5,473 nucleotides of DNA from a virus (taxonomy: Duplodnaviria > Heunggongvirae > Uroviricota > Caudoviricetes). Below, piece after piece: positions 1 to 5,473 of the stretch (position 1 is its first letter; the number at the start of each line of letters is the position of its first letter). Position numbers and translations under genes: made by a program. Where the stretch lies: the IMG/VR virus record IMGVR_UViG_2778261058_000013. The stretch is one strand, 5' to 3'. The notes under the pieces are model-generated. The model was not told where the DNA came from, made no database searches, and was given only the letters and a program-made list of their open reading frames with translations.

Positions 1-1401
1 CAGGCGGACAAGCTGCCCCGCCTTGACTTTTATCCCCTCCGTTTTGAGGAATGTCTCAACGTCCATTTCTCCGGTGCTGATTGCCACCGTGCGCCAGTGT
101 TTGATCTCCCTGTTGCCGCCGTCCTTTGCCCCCTGTAATTTCCCGGAACCGTTAAACAGCGTATAGGCTGACGTGGACACCTCCCGCGCGTTTCCGGCCT
201 GGCCTATTTCATCCAGGGGTAAAAGCCCGTCATTGTGTGCCTCTGCTTCGTTGGCGATACCTAACGCTGTGCCGTACCAGGTCAGCCGCTGCGCGTCCGG
301 CTCTCCCCATAAACTTGATGCGATGTTCTGCGTTGTGGTCTTACCTGCCGATGACTGTTCGAAAAGATGTACCCCGAAGCCGTCAGCGCCCACCAGCCCG
401 ATTAATGGTGCAGATAACGATACCGCCACACCCAGCATCATGGACGGATTACCACCAGCCAGCCGCGCAACGGTATCGCGCCAGCCCTCCGCCGTTCCTG
501 CCACGGAATAACCATTAACAGCAGCCGTTTTTCCGGTAAACAGGACTGGCTTTTCGCAATCACCAATGACCGAACCGTCCGGCATGATGTACGCGCCAAA
601 ATGCCAGCCCGTTGTTGTGCTTAACTGCCATTCCTCATGGTTTCCGCTTAACTGCATCCAGTCAGCCAGGATAGCCCTGTATTTGCCGTTGGTTGTCACG
701 TTCAGGCCGTGGTCTTTCAGCAACCGCCAGCCGTCACGGTCGCCAATGCCCCCGCACGGAACCGCCATTGTGATGACTTCATGGTTTGCGGGTTTCTTCC
801 AGCGCATCACGCGGTAATGCTCTTTGCCGATTGTCCCCGTTCCCAGTAGTTCAAGCGGGGAACATAACCACGTCTCAGGCCGGATAATTTCGCCTGACTG
901 CTTGTCAACTTTTGGCGTTACCCAGAAAACACCATCGGCGCGGCTTTCAACGCGGGGCTTTAATTCATCATCGCTATAGCTTCCTGTGGCTTTTTTCTTT
1001 AAGGGCAACACCAGACTTTCCCCGCGCTCGTATTCGTCTTTCAGTCGGGCAAGCTGTGGTGTCCAGTCCTCCAGTAAATCGCCGTTCTCGTCACAAAAAC
1101 AGGCTTCCTTAACACCAGCCACTGCCAGCAGGGTTTCAATCTGTAGCGCCAGTTTGTCATCCAGTTTTCCGGCACGTCTGACGATGGCGCGTGACCGACC
1201 CTCATCCACAATACGCAGGTTTTCCAGATTACCCAGGTCACGCCGTCCGAGATAAACAGGTGGTATTTTGTCGCCGCGCTTTCTGGCTTCTCCGCCCTGC
1301 ATGTAATGCTCTGCGTGGCTGTATGCGTCATCCCCCGCAAAAATCACTGCATCCTCGCCTTTATCTTTCGGTAACAGTTTTACGTTCGGCGCCAGTTTCA
1401 T
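1..1401 (-). CDS. Replication protein, primase/helicase-like with a P-loop NTPase domain (possibly DUF927/toprim-type); 3'-partial, continues beyond position 1
   Basis: The minus strand frame from 1401 to 1 has no stop codon (467 codons, checked by hand); it is absent from the ORF track because no stop falls in the window. ATG 1401..1399 overlaps the stop of the upstream gene (ATGA), with GGGGAAAGG just upstream. Translation begins MKLAPNVKLLPKDKGEDAVIFAGDDAYSHAEHYMQGGEARKRGDK and contains a Walker A-like SSAGKTT (about 334..354) and Walker B-like LLPLDEIG (about 202..225). The plus-strand ORFs across this span are antisense shadows. Confidence 0.8.
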   Translation of the reverse strand, partial: MKLAPNVKLLPKDKGEDAVIFAGDDAYSHAEHYMQGGEARKRGDKIPPVYLGRRDLGNLENLRIVDEGRSRAIVRRAGKLDDKLALQIETLLAVAGVKEACFCDENGDLLEDWTPQLARLKDEYERGESLVLPLKKKATGSYSDDELKPRVESRADGVFWVTPKVDKQSGEIIRPETWLCSPLELLGTGTIGKEHYRVMRWKKPANHEVITMAVPCGGIGDRDGWRLLKDHGLNVTTNGKYRAILADWMQLSGNHEEWQLSTTTGWHFGAYIMPDGSVIGDCEKPVLFTGKTAAVNGYSVAGTAEGWRDTVARLAGGNPSMMLGVAVSLSAPLIGLVGADGFGVHLFEQSSAGKTTTQNIASSLWGEPDAQRLTWYGTALGIANEAEAHNDGLLPLDEIGQAGNAREVSTSAYTLFNGSGKLQGAKDGGNREIKHWRTVAISTGEMDVETFLKTEGIKVKAGQLVRL

Positions 1402-1712
1402 TTTGCCTTTCCCCGTTCACGAATAATTTCACGTACTGCCTTAATGCGTTCCATACCTGTAACGCGCATGATTCTGTCGATGTCGCTTAAGTTCGCTGGT
1501 GGTGCTTTGCTTACCAGGGTGAATTCACTCTCAAAACGCATATGAGACGACACGCAGGGATGCGCATAACCTTCGCGGATATAAGTCACGCGAAAATCGT
1601 CAACGGTTTTTATCGTTATTCGTCCGCCGTATTTATCTTTGAAAATATCGTCGGGGCGGATTTCAGGCCGAGGGAGGCCGCTGGCAGTAAAGCCAGAATT
1701 TTTCTTTTTCAT
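1398..1712 (-). CDS. Hypothetical protein (104 aa), translationally coupled to the downstream primase-like gene
   Basis: ORF-track ORF with ATG at 1712..1710 preceded by GAGGAA and an 8-nt spacer; starts MKKK; its TGA stop overlaps the primase ATG (ATGA at 1398..1401). No family recognised. Confidence 0.6.
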   Translation of the reverse strand: MKKKNSGFTASGLPRPEIRPDDIFKDKYGGRITIKTVDDFRVTYIREGYAHPCVSSHMRFESEFTLVSKAPPANLSDIDRIMRVTGMERIKAVREIIRERGKAK

Positions 1713-1782: not shown

Positions 1783-1926
1783 TTAACAGAGTGCTGAAAG
1801 CAGAAAGTAAATACCCCCCCGCTCGGTGTTATTTTCGGTTAATTCATCCAGTACCGTTTTTAATTCAAGCGCCCTGATTAATGCATTCTCAGAATGAATA
1901 AGAACATCGAAAGGGATTTTATCCAT
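1783..1926 (-). CDS. Hypothetical small protein (47 aa as written), possibly frameshift-truncated at a G7 tract; one extra G would give 79 aa ending at 1718
   Basis: ATG 1926..1924 preceded by GGAGGA with an 8-nt spacer; translation MDKIPFDVLIHSENALIRALELKTVLDELTENNTERGGIYFLLSALC. A C7 run at 1814..1820 (G7 on the coding strand) lies inside the ORF. Below the ORF-track length cut-off. Confidence 0.35.
   Translation of the reverse strand: MDKIPFDVLIHSENALIRALELKTVLDELTENNTERGGIYFLLSALC
1814..1820 (-). repeat. Homopolymeric G7 tract (C7 on plus strand) inside a small ORF
   Basis: Read directly: ataCCCCCCCgctcgg on the plus strand. Confidence 0.95.
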
Positions 1927-2152
1927 GGCTTACATCCTCCGGGAATTTTCTTCTGTAACGCGCCTCTGCAACATATTCCGCATAGTCCGACGCAATATTG
2001 AGAATCTCCACACCCTCTGACCTGTAGCCACTGGTACTGATAAGAAAAAATGCGGCTTTCATCATGTCGGCAACGCATAACAACGCATCGCCTGTATGTT
2101 CCGGTGCGCCATCAAATTCCTGTTTCAGGGCATTAAAACGATCATCACGCAT
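1919..2152 (-). CDS. Hypothetical protein (77 aa from ATG 2152; the ORF-track frame extends to 2179); may be the C-terminal part of a fused roughly 155-aa protein
   Basis: Frame open 2179..1919. ATG at 2152..2150 sits 2 nt downstream of the G8 tract, which could act as a G-rich ribosome-binding site, and overlaps the TGA of the upstream ORF. Translation MRDDRFNALKQEFDGAPEHTGDALL...EDVSHG. Start choice is uncertain. Confidence 0.4.
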   Translation of the reverse strand: MRDDRFNALKQEFDGAPEHTGDALLCVADMMKAAFFLISTSGYRSEGVEILNIASDYAEYVAEARYRRKFPEDVSHG

Positions 2153-2384
2153 AACCCCCCCCATTTTCACAATCAGCAATCAGGATGGCTTTAGCCTCAT
2201 TCAGTGCCATATCAGCACTAAATTGCATAACAGCCAGTGAGTGAGGAACGAAAGCCCCGGCATATTCTGTTTCGCTGGTGGCGTGCTTATGTGCCCTGTC
2301 CGCGATAACAGAAATATCAATCAGCGCGTGCATTAGCGTTTTGATGGCTTCGGCGGCTGCGTCCGGCGTGTTTTTATTGCACAT
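2145..2384 (-). CDS. Hypothetical protein (79 aa)
   Basis: ORF-track ORF; ATG 2384..2382 preceded by AGGGGG with a 6-nt spacer and overlapping the 3' end of the upstream 68-aa ORF; translation MCNKNTPDAAAEAIKTLMHALIDISVIADRAHKH...CENGGGYA, ending just after the G8 tract. Confidence 0.5.
   Translation of the reverse strand: MCNKNTPDAAAEAIKTLMHALIDISVIADRAHKHATSETEYAGAFVPHSLAVMQFSADMALNEAKAILIADCENGGGYA
2155..2162 (-). repeat. Homopolymeric G8 tract (C8 on plus strand) at the junction of two small ORFs
   Basis: Read directly: ataaCCCCCCCCatttt on the plus strand; on the coding strand it encodes the GGG near the C-terminus of the 79-aa ORF. Confidence 0.95.
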
Positions 2385-2580
2385 GGTGCACCCCCTGGCG
2401 AATACGGGCGGCGAATACCATCACGCAGCCAGCCGGTGATTGCTGACGGGCTTCCTGTTCGCTGGTGGCCTCAATGGTAATCATGCGCGGTTGTGCCGTG
2501 CTCAGAGCGATAAAACGCCAGATATATTTATTCAGGTTGTGCGAGTCCCGCCCTTGCGGGTGTGTGGTATGATTTAACAT
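2374..2580 (-). CDS. Hypothetical protein (68 aa), first gene of the minus-strand small-ORF operon
   Basis: Internal ATG at 2580..2578 of the long ORF-track frame 2374..3492, preceded by GAGGT with a 5-nt spacer; translation MLNHTTHPQGRDSHNLNKYIWRFIALSTAQPRMITIEATSEQEARQQSPAGCVMVFAARIRQGVHHVQ. The longer upstream extension is rejected. Confidence 0.45.
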   Translation of the reverse strand: MLNHTTHPQGRDSHNLNKYIWRFIALSTAQPRMITIEATSEQEARQQSPAGCVMVFAARIRQGVHHVQ

Positions 2581-2676: not shown

Positions 2677-2759
2677 GGTGTAAGACACAATGTAAAATAC
2701 AAGTGTCTTACACGTCAAGCCTTCAAAATAATTTTTTTTCGTGTATATTGTCTTACACC
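2677..2759. promoter_or_regulatory. Divergent promoter region with three copies of a 12-bp operator-like motif (core TGTCTTACAC)
   Basis: GGTGTAAGACAC at 2677..2688 (inverted) and GTGTCTTACACG at 2703..2714 form a palindrome with a 14-bp spacer; a third copy TTGTCTTACACC lies at 2748..2759. On the plus strand a putative -35 TTCAAA (2722..2727) and -10 TATATT (2744..2749) are 16 bp apart; on the minus strand a putative -35 TTGACG (2718..2713) is followed by TACATT. A T8 run sits at 2732..2739. Confidence 0.5.
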
Positions 2760-2779: not shown

Positions 2780-2959
2780 ATGGCAACAGGTCCAAAGAAT
2801 GCAAAATCACAATCTGTAACTGCACGTATTGCCCATGAAATTATTGAAGGCATGGAAAACGTGAAAGAAGAAGGCGAAAGTACAGGGCAGTTTATAAGTG
2901 CAGCCATGCGCGGCGAGATCAAACGCCGCCAGCGTCGCAAGGCCAAAGAGCAGGAGTAA
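2780..2959 (+). CDS. Small basic protein (59 aa), possible ribbon-helix-helix-type DNA-binding regulator
   Basis: ATG at 2780 preceded by a consensus AAGGAG (2768..2773) with a 6-nt spacer; translation MATGPKNAKSQSVTARIAHEIIEGMENVKEEGESTGQFISAAMRGEIKRRQRRKAKEQE. The ORF-track start at GTG 2741 lies inside the promoter and is less likely. The RHH assignment is a guess from the N-terminal pattern. Confidence 0.6.
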   Translation: MATGPKNAKSQSVTARIAHEIIEGMENVKEEGESTGQFISAAMRGEIKRRQRRKAKEQE

Positions 2960-3016: not shown

Positions 3017-3214
3017 ATGACTGACAAATCATTAAAGAAATTATCCTCATCCAGGAAAAAACAACGCAAAAATGCGGTAAGCGAACAAGAACAGGAAAGA
3101 TTCGCACCTTGTTCGTTTGCTCTTGAGAAATTCCTTAAAGAGTACAGGCGCACAAAAATGGGATCGCATGCCTGGAAAACATCGCAGCATGGCGATACTA
3201 AAGAGCAGGAATAG
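3017..3214 (+). CDS. Hypothetical small basic protein (65 aa)
   Basis: ORF-track ORF; ATG 3017 with a weak AGGT 7 nt upstream; lysine/arginine-rich N-terminus; same strand as and immediately downstream of the 2780..2959 gene. Confidence 0.4.
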   Translation: MTDKSLKKLSSSRKKQRKNAVSEQEQERFAPCSFALEKFLKEYRRTKMGSHAWKTSQHGDTKEQE

Positions 3215-3317
3215 CCCACCAGCAAGCCAGCACACTGATCACATTGCCCACCAGCCGCAAATGTGGCATTGTTGGCTATGCTCATGCGTTGGGGATAACG
3301 TGTAGCTTGTGTCGAGG

Positions 3318-3346
3318 GGCCACCGTAGCGGGTGGCCTTTGTTTTG
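3318..3346 (+). terminator. Rho-independent terminator for the plus-strand small-gene pair
   Basis: Perfect 7-bp stem GGCCACC (3318..3324) / GGTGGCC (3331..3337) with 6-nt loop GTAGCG, followed by TTTGTTTTG. Confidence 0.5.
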
Positions 3347-3392: not shown

Positions 3393-3441
3393 TCCCCTGC
3401 ACTGATCCATTTTTTTCGCAGCAGGTTAATTGTTCGCAAGG

Positions 3442-3466
3442 GCGCTCCGGCAACGGGGCGCTTTTT
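3442..3466 (+). terminator. Rho-independent terminator-like hairpin on the plus strand
   Basis: Stem GCGCTCC (3442..3448) / GGGGCGC (3455..3461), seven pairs including one G-U wobble in RNA, loop GGCAAC, followed by TTTTTGTT. The minus strand has no U-tract after the stem. Confidence 0.45.
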
Positions 3467-3496: not shown

Positions 3497-3703
3497 TTAC
3501 GCAGCCGTTCCGCGCGCTTCTTCCTCGCGCTCTTTCAGCCAGGCCAGCACTTCATCTTCATACCAGCCAACACGGCGCAGACCGATTTTGAAGCCTTTCG
3601 GGAATTTTCCGGCGTTGATCATGTCCTGTAGCGAACTGTCTGCCTTGATGCGCAGAATATTTTTTACTTCCTGACGGGTAAGAATTTTTCTGATTACTTC
3701 CAT
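3497..3703 (-). CDS. alpA: AlpA/Vis-family phage transcriptional regulator (excisionase-like helix-turn-helix protein)
   Basis: ORF-track ORF; ATG 3703..3701 preceded by GAGGT with an 8-nt spacer; translation MEVIRKILTRQEVKNILRIKADSSLQDMINAGKFPKGFKIGLRRVGWYEDEVLAWLKEREEEARGTAA has the size (68 aa) and pattern of the AlpA family, and the gene sits in the expected position beside the integrase. Confidence 0.85.
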   Translation of the reverse strand: MEVIRKILTRQEVKNILRIKADSSLQDMINAGKFPKGFKIGLRRVGWYEDEVLAWLKEREEEARGTAA

Positions 3704-3767
3704 CGTGTTTTACCTCGTTAATACGGCGTATTCCGGTGATAAATACGGTAAAACAGGGCAGGGCGGG

Positions 3768-3810
3768 AAAAACAGTACTCACCGTTTTAAAACGGTACTC
3801 ACTGTTTTTT
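3768..3810. promoter_or_regulatory. Two tandem 20-bp near-palindromic repeats upstream of alpA (candidate regulator-binding sites)
   Basis: AAAACAGTACTCACCGTTTT (3769..3788) and AAAACGGTACTCACTGTTTT (3789..3808), 18/20 identical; each unit has partial dyad symmetry (AAAACNGT...ACNGTTTT). A possible degenerate third copy lies near 3741..3760. Confidence 0.4.
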
Positions 3811-3835
3811 ATCTCATTGATTACGCTTTCTTTTT

Positions 3836-3868
3836 GCAAAAAAATAGCGACCGCAAGGGGCCGCTATT
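3836..3868 (-). terminator. Rho-independent terminator after the 80-aa ORF and integrase transcription unit
   Basis: Stem AATAGCG (3843..3849) / CGCTATT (3862..3868) with a GC-rich interior; on the minus strand the stem is followed by a U7 tract (A-run 3838..3844 on plus); begins 5 nt past the stop at 3873. Confidence 0.55.
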
Positions 3869-3872
3869 GTGA

Positions 3873-4115
3873 TTACCGTTTCCACTTCTTAGGTCGCCCA
3901 CCACATTTAAGGCTGGTGGGCCTCAGCACCTTGTCGATGCTTTCAGCCAGATTTTTCGATGCGCCACGCGAGCGTAAAAAACTGACTACCTCGTGTTTTG
4001 TGGGGGCTGTTGATTTGTCTTCCGGATCGTATGTTGACCAGAATTCACGATTTGCCATTAACGCCAGTTGCAGCCCTTCGCCGCAAGCAGGGGATACCTT
4101 TTCATTGAAAAACAC
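3873..4115 (-). CDS. Hypothetical small protein (80 aa) with a basic GRPKKWKR C-terminus, between the integrase and alpA
   Basis: ORF-track ORF with a GTG start at 4115..4113 preceded by a consensus AAGGAG (4129..4124) and an 8-nt spacer; an alternative internal ATG gives MANREFWSTYDPEDK. Translation ends ...LKCGGRPKKWKR. Confidence 0.5.
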   Translation of the reverse strand: MFFNEKVSPACGEGLQLALMANREFWSTYDPEDKSTAPTKHEVVSFLRSRGASKNLAESIDKVLRPTSLKCGGRPKKWKR

Positions 4116-4171
4116 CTGGATAGCTCCTTGAATTTCATGATTTGGGTGACTCCTCTCTGTATTGGGTGGGT

Positions 4172-4210
4172 TGTGGCGATTATACGATGGTTTAGCATGG
4201 TTTGCATCGC
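4172..4210 (-). promoter_or_regulatory. Candidate sigma70 promoter for the 80-aa ORF
   Basis: Consensus TATAAT on the minus strand (plus 4184..4179) with a weak -35 ATGCAA 17 bp upstream; lies in the 116-bp gap between the integrase stop and the ORF's ribosome-binding site. Confidence 0.3.
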
Positions 4211-4231
4211 TTTTACTGGTTTTTTGTACAG

Positions 4232-5473
4232 TTACACGGCACGGATACCCCTTTTACCACTGGCTATGGTCACTCCGGTAGCTGCGGCCTCTACAAATTC
4301 CCCCCACCAGCGCATAAGCACCACGCGCTTTTCCAGGTAGTTACTTCTGTTATATGCCCGCCTTACCTCGTTCGTGTCCACGTGTGCGAGTGCGGCCTCG
4401 ATTACGTCCGGCTCGAATCCTTCCTCGTTCGCTGCTGTACTGAATATGGCGCGTAATCCGTGAGACACCAGCACACCAGCGTATCCCATCCGGCGCAATG
4501 CAGCGTTAGCGGTCTGGCTGCTCATTGGCAGCATTGGATTTTTAAGGCTGGGAAAAACATGTTCCCTGTGTGCGCTGATTGGCTTCATGGTTTCCAGTAC
4601 AGCCATAGCCTGACCGCAAAGGGGGATCACGTGGTCACGGCGCATCTTCATGCGTCCGGCTGGAATCGTCCATGTTTCGGCATCGAGATCTATTTCTTCC
4701 CAGCGTGCGGCGGCTGCTTCGGCTGGGCGTGCTACGGTCAGCAGTTGCCACTCAATCAGCAATCTGGTTTGCCGTTCTATGCTGGCGACCGATAAATCGT
4801 GCATTAGCTGCGGTAGCTGTTCCGGTCGGATGGTTGGCATGTGCTTTTTGGTGGGTGAGGGGAATGCCTTGCGGACGTTCGCGGCGGTGTTGATGTCAAT
4901 CAGCCCACTGTTGGCAGCAAAATCCATCACTTCATTGATGCGTTGTAAAACGCGTTTCAGGGTTTCCAGGTTGCCGCGTGCTTTAATGGGGGTGAGTATC
5001 TCAACAAAGCGGCGAGCTGTGAGGGTATCTATTGGCGTGTTTCCGATGTACGGGAATACGTATTTTTCCAGGGATCGCCAGATATCCTTAATCGTGTTGT
5101 AAGCCAGATTCTGGCCTTTTTTCATCTCGTACCAGTCCGAGGCAACTTTTTCGAACGTGTTGCCCTTTTTCCGACTCTCTGCTTCACGTTTCCGGCGTTC
5201 GTGGTCCTGTGGGTCAACTCCCTTCGCTATGAGTGACCTGTATTCATTCCGTCGTTCTCTGGCATCGGACAGGGAAACATCATTCAGCGATCCGAGGCTG
5301 ATGATAGTCCGTTTTTTATCTGCCGGGCGGTAGTACGTAAAACGCCAGATTTTTGATCCGGAGGGTTTCACCAGAAGAAATAATCCTCCACCATCCTGCA
5401 GGGTGTATTCCTTTTCCCCTGGTCGTGCGTTTTTGATCTCCGTAATGGTTAGTGGGGTGGTTTTTCGTGCCAT
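4232..5473 (-). CDS. int: Site-specific tyrosine recombinase, P4-type phage integrase (413 aa, complete)
   Basis: ORF-track ORF; ATG at the window edge (5473..5471). The N-terminus MARKTTPLTITEIKNARPGEKEYTLQDGGGLFLLVKPSGSKIWRFTYY is typical of the arm-binding domain of P4-like integrases; the C-terminal domain has the HxLR motif (VSHGLRAIF) and a catalytic-Tyr context (RRAYNRSNYLEKR). Confidence 0.95.
   Translation of the reverse strand: MARKTTPLTITEIKNARPGEKEYTLQDGGGLFLLVKPSGSKIWRFTYYRPADKKRTIISLGSLNDVSLSDARERRNEYRSLIAKGVDPQDHERRKREAESRKKGNTFEKVASDWYEMKKGQNLAYNTIKDIWRSLEKYVFPYIGNTPIDTLTARRFVEILTPIKARGNLETLKRVLQRINEVMDFAANSGLIDINTAANVRKAFPSPTKKHMPTIRPEQLPQLMHDLSVASIERQTRLLIEWQLLTVARPAEAAAARWEEIDLDAETWTIPAGRMKMRRDHVIPLCGQAMAVLETMKPISAHREHVFPSLKNPMLPMSSQTANAALRRMGYAGVLVSHGLRAIFSTAANEEGFEPDVIEAALAHVDTNEVRRAYNRSNYLEKRVVLMRWWGEFVEAAATGVTIASGKRGIRAV

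Follow-up and report, generated by a model that had tools for sequence, protein, structure and literature searches.

At the junction of two small open reading frames (ORFs), a run of guanines whose length differs between close relatives raises the question of whether the two frames are one gene that has been broken, two genes that are repeatedly joined, or the parts of a switch. Such a junction is found in a stretch of 5,473 nucleotides (nt) from a Caudoviricetes virus (IMG/VR record IMGVR_UViG_2778261058_000013), here called the window, in which ORF1 and ORF2, both on the minus strand, meet at a G8 homopolymer. We put the probability at roughly 0.6 that ORF1 and ORF2 are two translationally coupled small genes and that the Shine-Dalgarno (SD) region of ORF2 is a slipping homopolymer whose variation is tolerated, a reading drawn from comparative sequence analysis. 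A preliminary description of the window had set a single gene interrupted at the run against two genes with an invariant G8, and the truth lies between the two.

The G8 run that had been placed at the junction of two small ORFs is read directly from the sequence at 2155..2162 on the minus strand (C8 on the plus strand). ORF1 (2384..2145, minus strand; 79 amino acids (aa); phrog_5146) starts 11 nt inside the end of the preceding Icd-like gene and ends ...ADCENGGGYA*, with the tract coding for Gly-Gly-Gly at its C-terminus. After the run, ORF1 has two sense codons and then its stop TGA (2147..2145), and the five codons that had been reported past the run are obtained only by counting from the start of the run. 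ORF2 (1919..2152, minus strand; phrog_24341) is 77 aa long when read from the ATG at 2152..2150 to its end at 1919 (MRDDRFNALKQ...EDVSHG), and its frame is open through the G run as a TTG-start ORF at 2179..1919. Both products are predicted to be helical and have no known function. The start and stop form an 8-nt overlap of the translational-coupling type (ATGCGTGA, 2145..2152, minus strand), and the G8 tract lies at -10..-3 relative to the ORF2 ATG, the expected place of an SD sequence. If one G is removed, the junction reads GAA AAT GGG GGG GTT ATG CGT (...ENGGVMRDD...) and a 154-aa ORF results, as had been anticipated (about 155 aa), and real proteins of 154-156 aa with this form exist.

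Relatives of the junction were collected from several sources. A gapped pattern (GATTGTGAAAAT-N{4,18}-TTATGCGTGATGATCG) recovered 90 IMG/VR loci and one Shigella flexneri genome, which together with three Escherichia coli genomes make up a set of 94 loci; a relaxed pattern recovered 33 metagenome contigs; and exact 50-54-nt junction queries with G6 to G10 were compared with 5,426 complete E. coli genomes, 737 of which carry the junction, in approximately 884 places. A scan of a one-genome-per-species collection returned a single locus, in Shigella flexneri with G8, and was of little use as a census. The tract is polymorphic, ranging from G7 to G12 in the 127 viral, metagenome and genome loci and from G6 to G10 in the complete E. 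coli genomes. G8, the allele of the window, is modal among the 94 loci (36, along with 24 G7, 18 G9, four G10, three G11 and no G6) and among the 33 metagenome loci (17, along with five G7, five G9, one G10 and neither G6 nor G11). The remainder have interrupted tracts, namely GGGGGTGG in three, GGGGTGGG in two, GGGGGGGGTGG in one and GGGGAGGGGGGG in three of the 94 loci, with three further interrupted tracts among the 33, or the sequence ATAT-GGGG (two metagenome loci, none of the 94). Among the complete E. coli genomes the commonest allele is G7 (371), followed by G8 (165), G9 (94), G10 (15, including strain 042) and G6 (seven). All listed examples of G7 complete genomes are O157:H7, O145 or related strains, and we take the high G7 count to reflect heavy sequencing of the O157:H7/O145 lineages.

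All three reading frames are present among these alleles, and the two ORFs are already in frame in 28 of the 94 loci, in six of the 33 (two decayed G4 copies excluded) and in 386 of 652 alleles from complete genomes. The RefSeq annotation tracks the frame, with one hypothetical protein called at G7 and G10 and two at G6, G8 and G9. Thus, two coding sequences (CDSs) are annotated in ETEC4090, the closest complete E. coli genome (96.4% identity over the region; G8), and in TW10590 (G11). A single CDS is called in O145:H28 RM12761 (G7; 154 aa) and at the G7 or G10 alleles of E. coli O157:H7, O145 and strain 042. The seven G6 genomes (H56-H62) include three O145 '-C1' assemblies, and other O145 genomes (RM12761, RM9872) have G7; the G6 calls in O145 represent either real slippage within the serotype or under-calling of the homopolymer. 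Pure tracts shorter than 7 G are found in none of the 127 loci and in seven of the 737 genomes, and the tract is pure in about 90% of alleles despite the high diversity of the surrounding genes.

A G8 run is expected to be unstable through replication slippage, and the length of this tract shows no correlation with the divergence of its flanks once these are a single base apart. Grouped by their 480-nt flanks, the 90 loci for which these are complete represent 72 haplotypes, and tract length differs within six of the ten haplotypes that have more than one member. Among 113 loci, pairs with identical 440-nt flanks have the same length in 59% of cases; once the flanks are one or two or more bases apart, the proportion of same-length pairs is 19-34%, compared with a random expectation of 32%. 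In one pair of loci, L002 (G11) and L024 (G10), there is not a single mismatch in 3.7 kb of flanking DNA, and L024 differs from L074 (G9) by seven mismatches in 5.3 kb. We take the variation of the tract as real mutational instability.

Whether the fused or the split form came first was addressed through relatives of the encoded proteins. A protein search with the hypothetical fusion gave 479 matches, the best 120 of which are all 154-156 aa long with 80-96% identity, and the listed sources of the fused-protein matches are all E. coli or Enterobacteriaceae. PHROGs has three families for the same modules, phrog_2512 (154 aa, fused), phrog_5146 (ORF1) and phrog_24341 (ORF2). Only 52 relatives came out of an HMMER scan that covered 1.84 billion representatives. 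Relatives without the tract, at 39-58% identity, are stand-alone proteins that resemble either ORF1 (73-93 aa, with ends such as ...KKIQGAHHA, ...NKGVDHA and ...APGDNEYE) or ORF2 (68-78 aa; MYDDRF..., MNTEYF..., MNSKRL...), and the first residue of the ORF2-like proteins aligns with Met78 of the fusion, which is the Met of MRDDRF. The two modules are independent and in these loci do not even adjoin each other: the genes that follow the ORF1 homologues (L095, L096/97) are small and unrelated, and those that precede the ORF2 homologues (L131-L134) are unrelated too, in operons of the same kind upstream of DUF4222 and DUF927 genes. The joint of every fused sequence inspected is ENGGVM or ENGGGVM, i.e. 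G7 or G10, and no fusion with any other linker was found among the distant relatives. Since the modules are separate in distant relatives and the linkers are those made by the tract only, the two-gene arrangement is taken to be ancestral, and the single interrupted gene implied by the preliminary description is not supported as the original state. The fusion is then a recurrent derived allele, probably arising from slippage in the tract.

Several candidates were examined along the way and set aside. An origin of ORF1 and ORF2 by tandem duplication was rejected (hhalign probability 0.3%; the families are unrelated). A 141-aa protein with 46% identity (P0129), which looked like a distant fusion, proved to be a frameshifted variant in which the ORF2 frame is read upstream of the tract. 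The ATAT-GGGG form was considered as a 'locked', stabilised fusion and dismissed, all five such loci being decayed copies without the N-terminal half of ORF1. These loci (L099, L106, L135, L137 and L138) share the junction GAATAT-GGGG-TTATG (G4, fused frame) and a rearrangement that swaps the N-terminal half of ORF1 for unrelated sequence, and they are the sole lineage seen with a short tract. In one further variant (P0125/P0128), the ORF2 module is in frame with an unrelated N-terminal part of 90 aa (...SRERLRDDRFNSLK...) and Leu replaces the start Met; either this is one more natural fusion, or the gene call was extended too far and the start is TTG or CTG.

These data bear on the proposal that the fusion of about 154 aa is the true gene and that G8 and G9 are frameshift mutants, pseudogenes or sequencing errors in the homopolymer. 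The abundance and conservation of the fused 154/155-aa proteins (phrog_2512), the predominance of G7 in complete E. coli genomes and the status of homopolymers as classic sites of assembly error would all agree with it. Nevertheless, we consider it highly improbable. In addition to the separate modules in different neighbourhoods and the lack of fusions with other linkers noted above, G8 is the commonest allele in both the viral/genome and the metagenome loci, and the split allele reproduces the standard 8-nt overlap of the operon, which a random frameshift would not do. Furthermore, every interrupted tract with a total length of 8 and a longest G run of at most 5 (GGGGGTGG, GGGGTGGG and GGGGTTGG; six loci with several flank haplotypes) is in the split frame, and the two-gene state is therefore viable in the long term. 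The ratio of nonsynonymous to synonymous substitution rates (dN/dS) of ORF2 is 0.32 in split-phase alleles, with no relaxation of selection, an argument that is weakened by the rapid interconversion of phases. Finally, an AlphaFold2 (AF2) model of a fused homologue, built from an alignment of 23 sequences, has no confident contact between the halves and a linker with a predicted local distance difference test score (pLDDT) below 50; this is weak evidence, as the model (pLDDT 54.7, predicted template modelling score 0.37) is too poor to judge packing or to serve as the query of a fold search.

The other possibility offered by the preliminary description, namely two coupled genes with the G run as a ribosome-binding site (RBS) for the ATG at 2152, fits a junction design that appears to be used throughout the operon, except that the ATG itself does not overlap the upstream TGA. 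In this design, a G-rich SD-like motif (GGGGG, GGAGG or GGGAGG in the operon and its relatives, about 5-9 nt before the ATG) precedes a start codon in an overlap with the upstream stop. Examples are the junctions of the Icd-like gene with ORF1 (caGGGGGtgcaccATGTGCAATAA) and of ORF2 with ORF3 (cGGAGGatgtaagccATGGATAA) in the window, of the ORF1 homologue with the next gene in L096 (aaGGGGGttgatcATGCGTAG), and of the gene preceding the ORF2 homologue in L132 (tcGGAGGgctggtcATGTATGA). A distant ORF1 homologue has the junction aataaGGGGGttgatcATGCGTAG, with GGGGG where the window has G8, and the window junction, G8-TT-ATGCGTGA, is on this comparison best described as the operon design in which G5 has probably grown to G8. 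The predicted pairing with the 3' end of 16S rRNA (anti-SD) is about -11 kcal/mol for G7 to G12 and weaker for G4 and G5, and the other operon junctions with GGGGG or GGAGG are predicted to pair at -9.5 to -12 kcal/mol. A published survey of frame transitions (Antonov et al. 2013, PMC3711429) recognises translational coupling by a start within 10 nt of a stop and phase variation by a homopolymer of at least 7 at the transition, and the window junction has both features. As in coupled pairs, the SD-like element lies inside the upstream ORF and the downstream gene is independent.

Overlaps of 4, 8 or 11 nt (ATGA, ATGnnTAA/TGA and ATGnnnnnTAA) are seen at nearly every junction of the window operon (2374-2384, 2145-2152, 1919-1926 and 1398-1401, minus strand) and of distant relatives (L095, L096, L131-L133). 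A side effect of this layout is that many of the small proteins end in ...H-A, ...H-V or ...H-G.

On the preferred reading of two coupled genes, ORF1 and ORF2 would belong to the early (replication-side) operon of an integrase/AlpA/Icd-like/DUF4222/DUF927-primase island, and the G run would be the SD region of ORF2 embedded in the Gly-Gly-Gly codons of ORF1. A pure homopolymer of at least 7 G would slip during DNA replication, and its alleles would therefore interconvert faster than one point substitution arises per ~440 nt. G8 and G11 give the canonical split pair, which is the state of the window; G9, G12 and the rare G6 extend ORF1 by 14 aa across the ORF2 start (...GGGLCVMIVLMP*); and G7 and G10 give the in-frame fusion of 154/155 aa. 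ORF2 keeps its own G run and ATG in every allele and is presumably made in all of them. Because only the tail of ORF1 or its tethering to ORF2 would change, the polymorphism could be tolerated.

Purifying selection acts on both ORFs in every phase class. dN/dS is about 0.42 for ORF1 (65 distinct alleles) and about 0.33 for ORF2, with a proportion of synonymous differences (pS) of about 0.4; across the three tract phases the values do not differ, at 0.39-0.43 for ORF1 and 0.32-0.38 for ORF2, the upper ORF2 value being that of the fused alleles.

Several observations weigh against coupling with tolerated variation. The SD function and the coupling are predictions from the design of the sequence. 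The run stops 2 nt short of the ATG, which is less spacing than a typical SD has, and only its 5' part is at a normal distance. Four or five G would thus be suitably placed only where the tract has 7 G or more, and the near-absence of tracts shorter than G7 would fit a requirement for several G no closer than 4-5 nt to the start codon. As phases interconvert quickly, equal dN/dS does not prove translation of ORF2 from split-phase alleles. The synonymous conservation of G in the tract is suggestive but statistically not decisive, the nucleotide diversity (pi) at its four-fold sites being 0 and 0.08 compared with a mean of 0.32, with five of 16 other such sites equally invariant in loci ascertained by a pattern adjoining the tract. 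The fused allele is stable in very successful clones (O157:H7/O145) and is not obviously inferior. Part of the length variation between assemblies may reflect sequencing error in the homopolymer, above all the G6 calls in a few assemblies that are probably built from long reads. However, the G7-G12 spread is common to isolate-derived IMG/VR contigs, metagenome assemblies and complete RefSeq genomes, and both fused and split forms are annotated in PHROGs and in RefSeq, so that error alone is hard to credit. Finally, a hypervariable tract 340 nt downstream, in ORF3, hints at more than the accidental expansion of an SD sequence.

ORF3 (1783..1926, minus strand; 47 aa) overlaps the ORF2 stop by 8 nt (ATGGATAA) and contains a G7 tract at 1814..1820 (minus strand) that truncates its frame in the window. 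The preliminary description had noted this second run at a frame break, and relatives with one G more indeed have an ORF3 of 69 aa. In relatives with this type of ORF3 the run is 7 to 10 G long; the full-length 69-aa form occurs in five loci, where it ends just before the RBS of the DUF4222 gene, and truncated forms of 47, 48 or 52 aa occur in nine other loci and in the window. None of the five loci of the ORF3 subtype of the window (ccgagc-Gn-tattt) has the full-length frame, nor does the close relative ETEC4090 (L001). Since this run does not adjoin a start codon, an SD role cannot explain it, and the homopolymer simply breaks the frame inside a gene. It had also been estimated that two such runs exceed chance. 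GGGGGGG is counted three times in the window, compared with 0.77 expected, and 15 of 200 dinucleotide shuffles (about 7%) reach three, so that by composition alone the runs are only weakly unusual. The significance of the G runs thus comes from the comparative data and not from their number.

The second tract is one of the reasons to consider adaptive phase variation, in which selection would keep the tract long and switching among separate, extended and fused ORF1-ORF2 and between full and truncated ORF3 would diversify some interaction with a helper phage or the host. Nearly all alleles have at least 7 G and about 90% are pure, shorter tracts being nearly absent; alleles occur in all three frames, and their length does not follow the phylogeny of the flanks; a second hypervariable tract, G7 to G10, is found one gene further on in the operon; and at a frame transition stands a homopolymer of 7 or more, the mark of phase variation used in PMC3711429. 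We regard it as unlikely all the same. ORF2 retains a start of its own whichever frame is present, which leaves no clear ON/OFF state, and neither ORF1 nor ORF2 has a known phenotype or function. The mutability is qualitatively what would be expected of any G8 run, the conservation of synonymous sites in the tract is not significant, and stable interrupted alleles persist. The fused allele is carried by 371 complete genomes, of which the listed examples are O157:H7, O145 or related strains, with no sign of very rapid switching. The stronger proposal that both tracts are contingency loci of an E. coli phage satellite, reprogramming three consecutive proteins of the early operon, is quite doubtful. 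Phase variation based on simple sequence repeats (SSRs) is not known to be a common strategy in E. coli.

It could also be asked whether the split genotype produces the fusion by programmed recoding, that is, whether a +1 ribosomal slip at the G run or at GCG-UGA, or slippage of RNA polymerase, gives the fused and separate proteins together, in which case every genotype would make a fixed ratio of products. After a shift on the G run, tRNA-Gly could re-pair perfectly; the ORF2 frame would also be reached by a +1 shift at the ORF1 stop; and homopolymers can cause transcriptional slippage. The order of an SD-like G-rich element, UAU, one sense codon and UGA is also reminiscent of the +1 site of prfB (AGGGGG UAU CUU UGA C). 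The likeness of GGGGGG-UUAU-GCG-UGA-U (2145-2165, minus strand) to that site is loose, and since by the genetic code GCG cannot re-pair in the +1 frame, the resemblance is regarded as coincidental. Recoding sites normally keep one fixed shift, whereas here the relation of the two frames varies: in 30-59% of alleles the ORFs are in frame as they stand, and the remainder require +1 or -1. In addition, ORF2 has its own SD-like run and ATG and is a stand-alone gene elsewhere, and efficient transcriptional slippage in bacteria is documented mainly for A/T runs. Recoding is hence hardly credible as the explanation of this junction.

The junction can be compared with several known systems. In coupled overlapping pairs (trpE-trpD, trpB-trpA and the class described in PMC3711429), the downstream ATG is likewise no more than 10 nt from the upstream stop, and an SD rich in purines or G likewise lies inside the upstream coding sequence. 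In the window the design is repeated along the operon and its relatives, and automated finders of frame transitions would flag the junction as a possible frameshift. Unlike in these pairs, the SD here is a pure homopolymer of 7-12 G of changing length, the stop/start geometry is unstable, an in-frame fusion replaces the overlap in a third or more of alleles, and the coupling is inferred. The poly-G/C contingency loci of Campylobacter jejuni, Neisseria, Haemophilus and Helicobacter likewise have 7 or more G in a row within coding sequence, tract lengths that differ between near-identical strains, frame changes that alter the products and annotations as one or two ORFs; classic loci of this kind turn a single gene ON and OFF, whereas the downstream ORF2 is independent, has its own start and leaves no clear OFF allele. 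Fusion/fission ('Rosetta stone') pairs are also separate in some genomes and one polypeptide in others, here with a short Gly-rich linker, but the ORF1-ORF2 fusion is a recurrent and reversible one-base slip rather than a fixed event, and an interaction of the two halves has no support, the AF2 model being of low confidence. Programmed frameshift sites (prfB, dnaX, lambda G-T and IS3-family transposases) similarly combine a slippery homopolymer at a junction of overlapping frames with an SD-like G-rich element just upstream of the stop; they differ in that the required shift is not conserved here, the downstream frame has its own initiation signals and the length of the tract is variable.

The preliminary description had proposed comparing homologues for one ORF or two, and both forms were indeed found, the tract not being an invariant G8. 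The components are all of known kinds (coupled overlapping genes, SSR-driven frame changes and fusion/fission polymorphism), and the simplest reading, that of a tolerated hotspot, makes the locus a useful curiosity rather than a surprise. For annotation, it matters that about one in seven complete E. coli genomes (~14%) carries the junction and that one or two genes are called on the strength of a single G. It also suggests that an SD composed of G can expand and become a hotspot of mutation, at which adjacent genes of a mobile element are joined and separated time and again, providing a natural and reversible case of gene fusion and fission across hundreds of strains. If the variation were selected, E. 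coli phage satellites would be credited with SSR-type phase variation, as a switch borne by a mobile element in a species not known for them and situated in the RBS of a coupled pair. No report of this tract, locus or its proteins was found in the literature.

Database searches gave little further indication of function. ORF1, ORF2 and ORF3 have no match in Pfam, NCBIfam or PADLOC, and the fused form has none in Pfam or NCBIfam; in PHROGs, ORF3 has no match, and ORF1, ORF2 and the fused form match only families of 'unknown function'.

The leftward operon has the gene order Icd-like, ORF1, ORF2, ORF3, DUF4222 and DUF927. Its first gene encodes an Icd-like protein of 68 aa (2374..2580, minus strand; NCBIfam NF033153, 6e-20; phrog_6196; also from the RefSeq annotation of homologues). 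Downstream of ORF3 are a DUF4222 gene of 104 aa (1398..1712, minus strand; Pfam PF13973, 7.6e-18) and a DUF927 replication protein of primase/helicase type (1..1401, minus strand; Pfam PF06048, 3e-46), whose N-terminal 467 aa are present, the gene running past the edge of the window; its start overlaps the DUF4222 stop (ATGA). A promoter-like site, TTGACG-18-TACATT (2689..2718, minus strand; consensus match only), could drive the operon, although such sites are no more frequent in the window than in shuffled sequence, and there is no terminator-like site on the minus strand between it (2718..2689) and position 1300.

Upstream of the operon, the region 2580-2780 between the Icd-like gene and a divergent YlcI/YnfO-family gene (2780-2959, plus strand) forms a divergent control region with promoter-like sites on both strands (2670-2698 and 2722-2749, plus; 2718-2689, minus), and the leader of the leftward operon, of ~110 nt, contains a GC-rich hairpin-like stretch at about 2628-2650. 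An Rfam scan of the window gave no match. The divergent gene is followed by a phrog_21027 gene (3017-3214, plus strand), and two strong terminator-like hairpins on the plus strand (3315-3340 and 3438-3465) lie downstream of these rightward genes, facing the end of an AlpA-type regulator gene (3703..3497, minus strand). A tyrosine integrase gene occupies 5473..4232 (minus strand), and between it and the AlpA-like gene lies an ORF of 80 aa (3873-4115, minus strand) with no match in Pfam, PHROGs, NCBIfam or PADLOC.

The related loci are mostly IMG/VR 'viral' contigs of 7-14 kb from isolate genomes, and a tblastn search of 50,697 phage records gave no match. Judging from its gene content (P4-type integrase, AlpA and primase), the element is probably a chromosomal island of the phage-satellite kind. 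In the corresponding island of E. coli ETEC4090, the gene that follows DUF4222 at the position of DUF927 (3694-4981) is annotated as a frameshifted pseudogene, and this copy of the island may be decaying.

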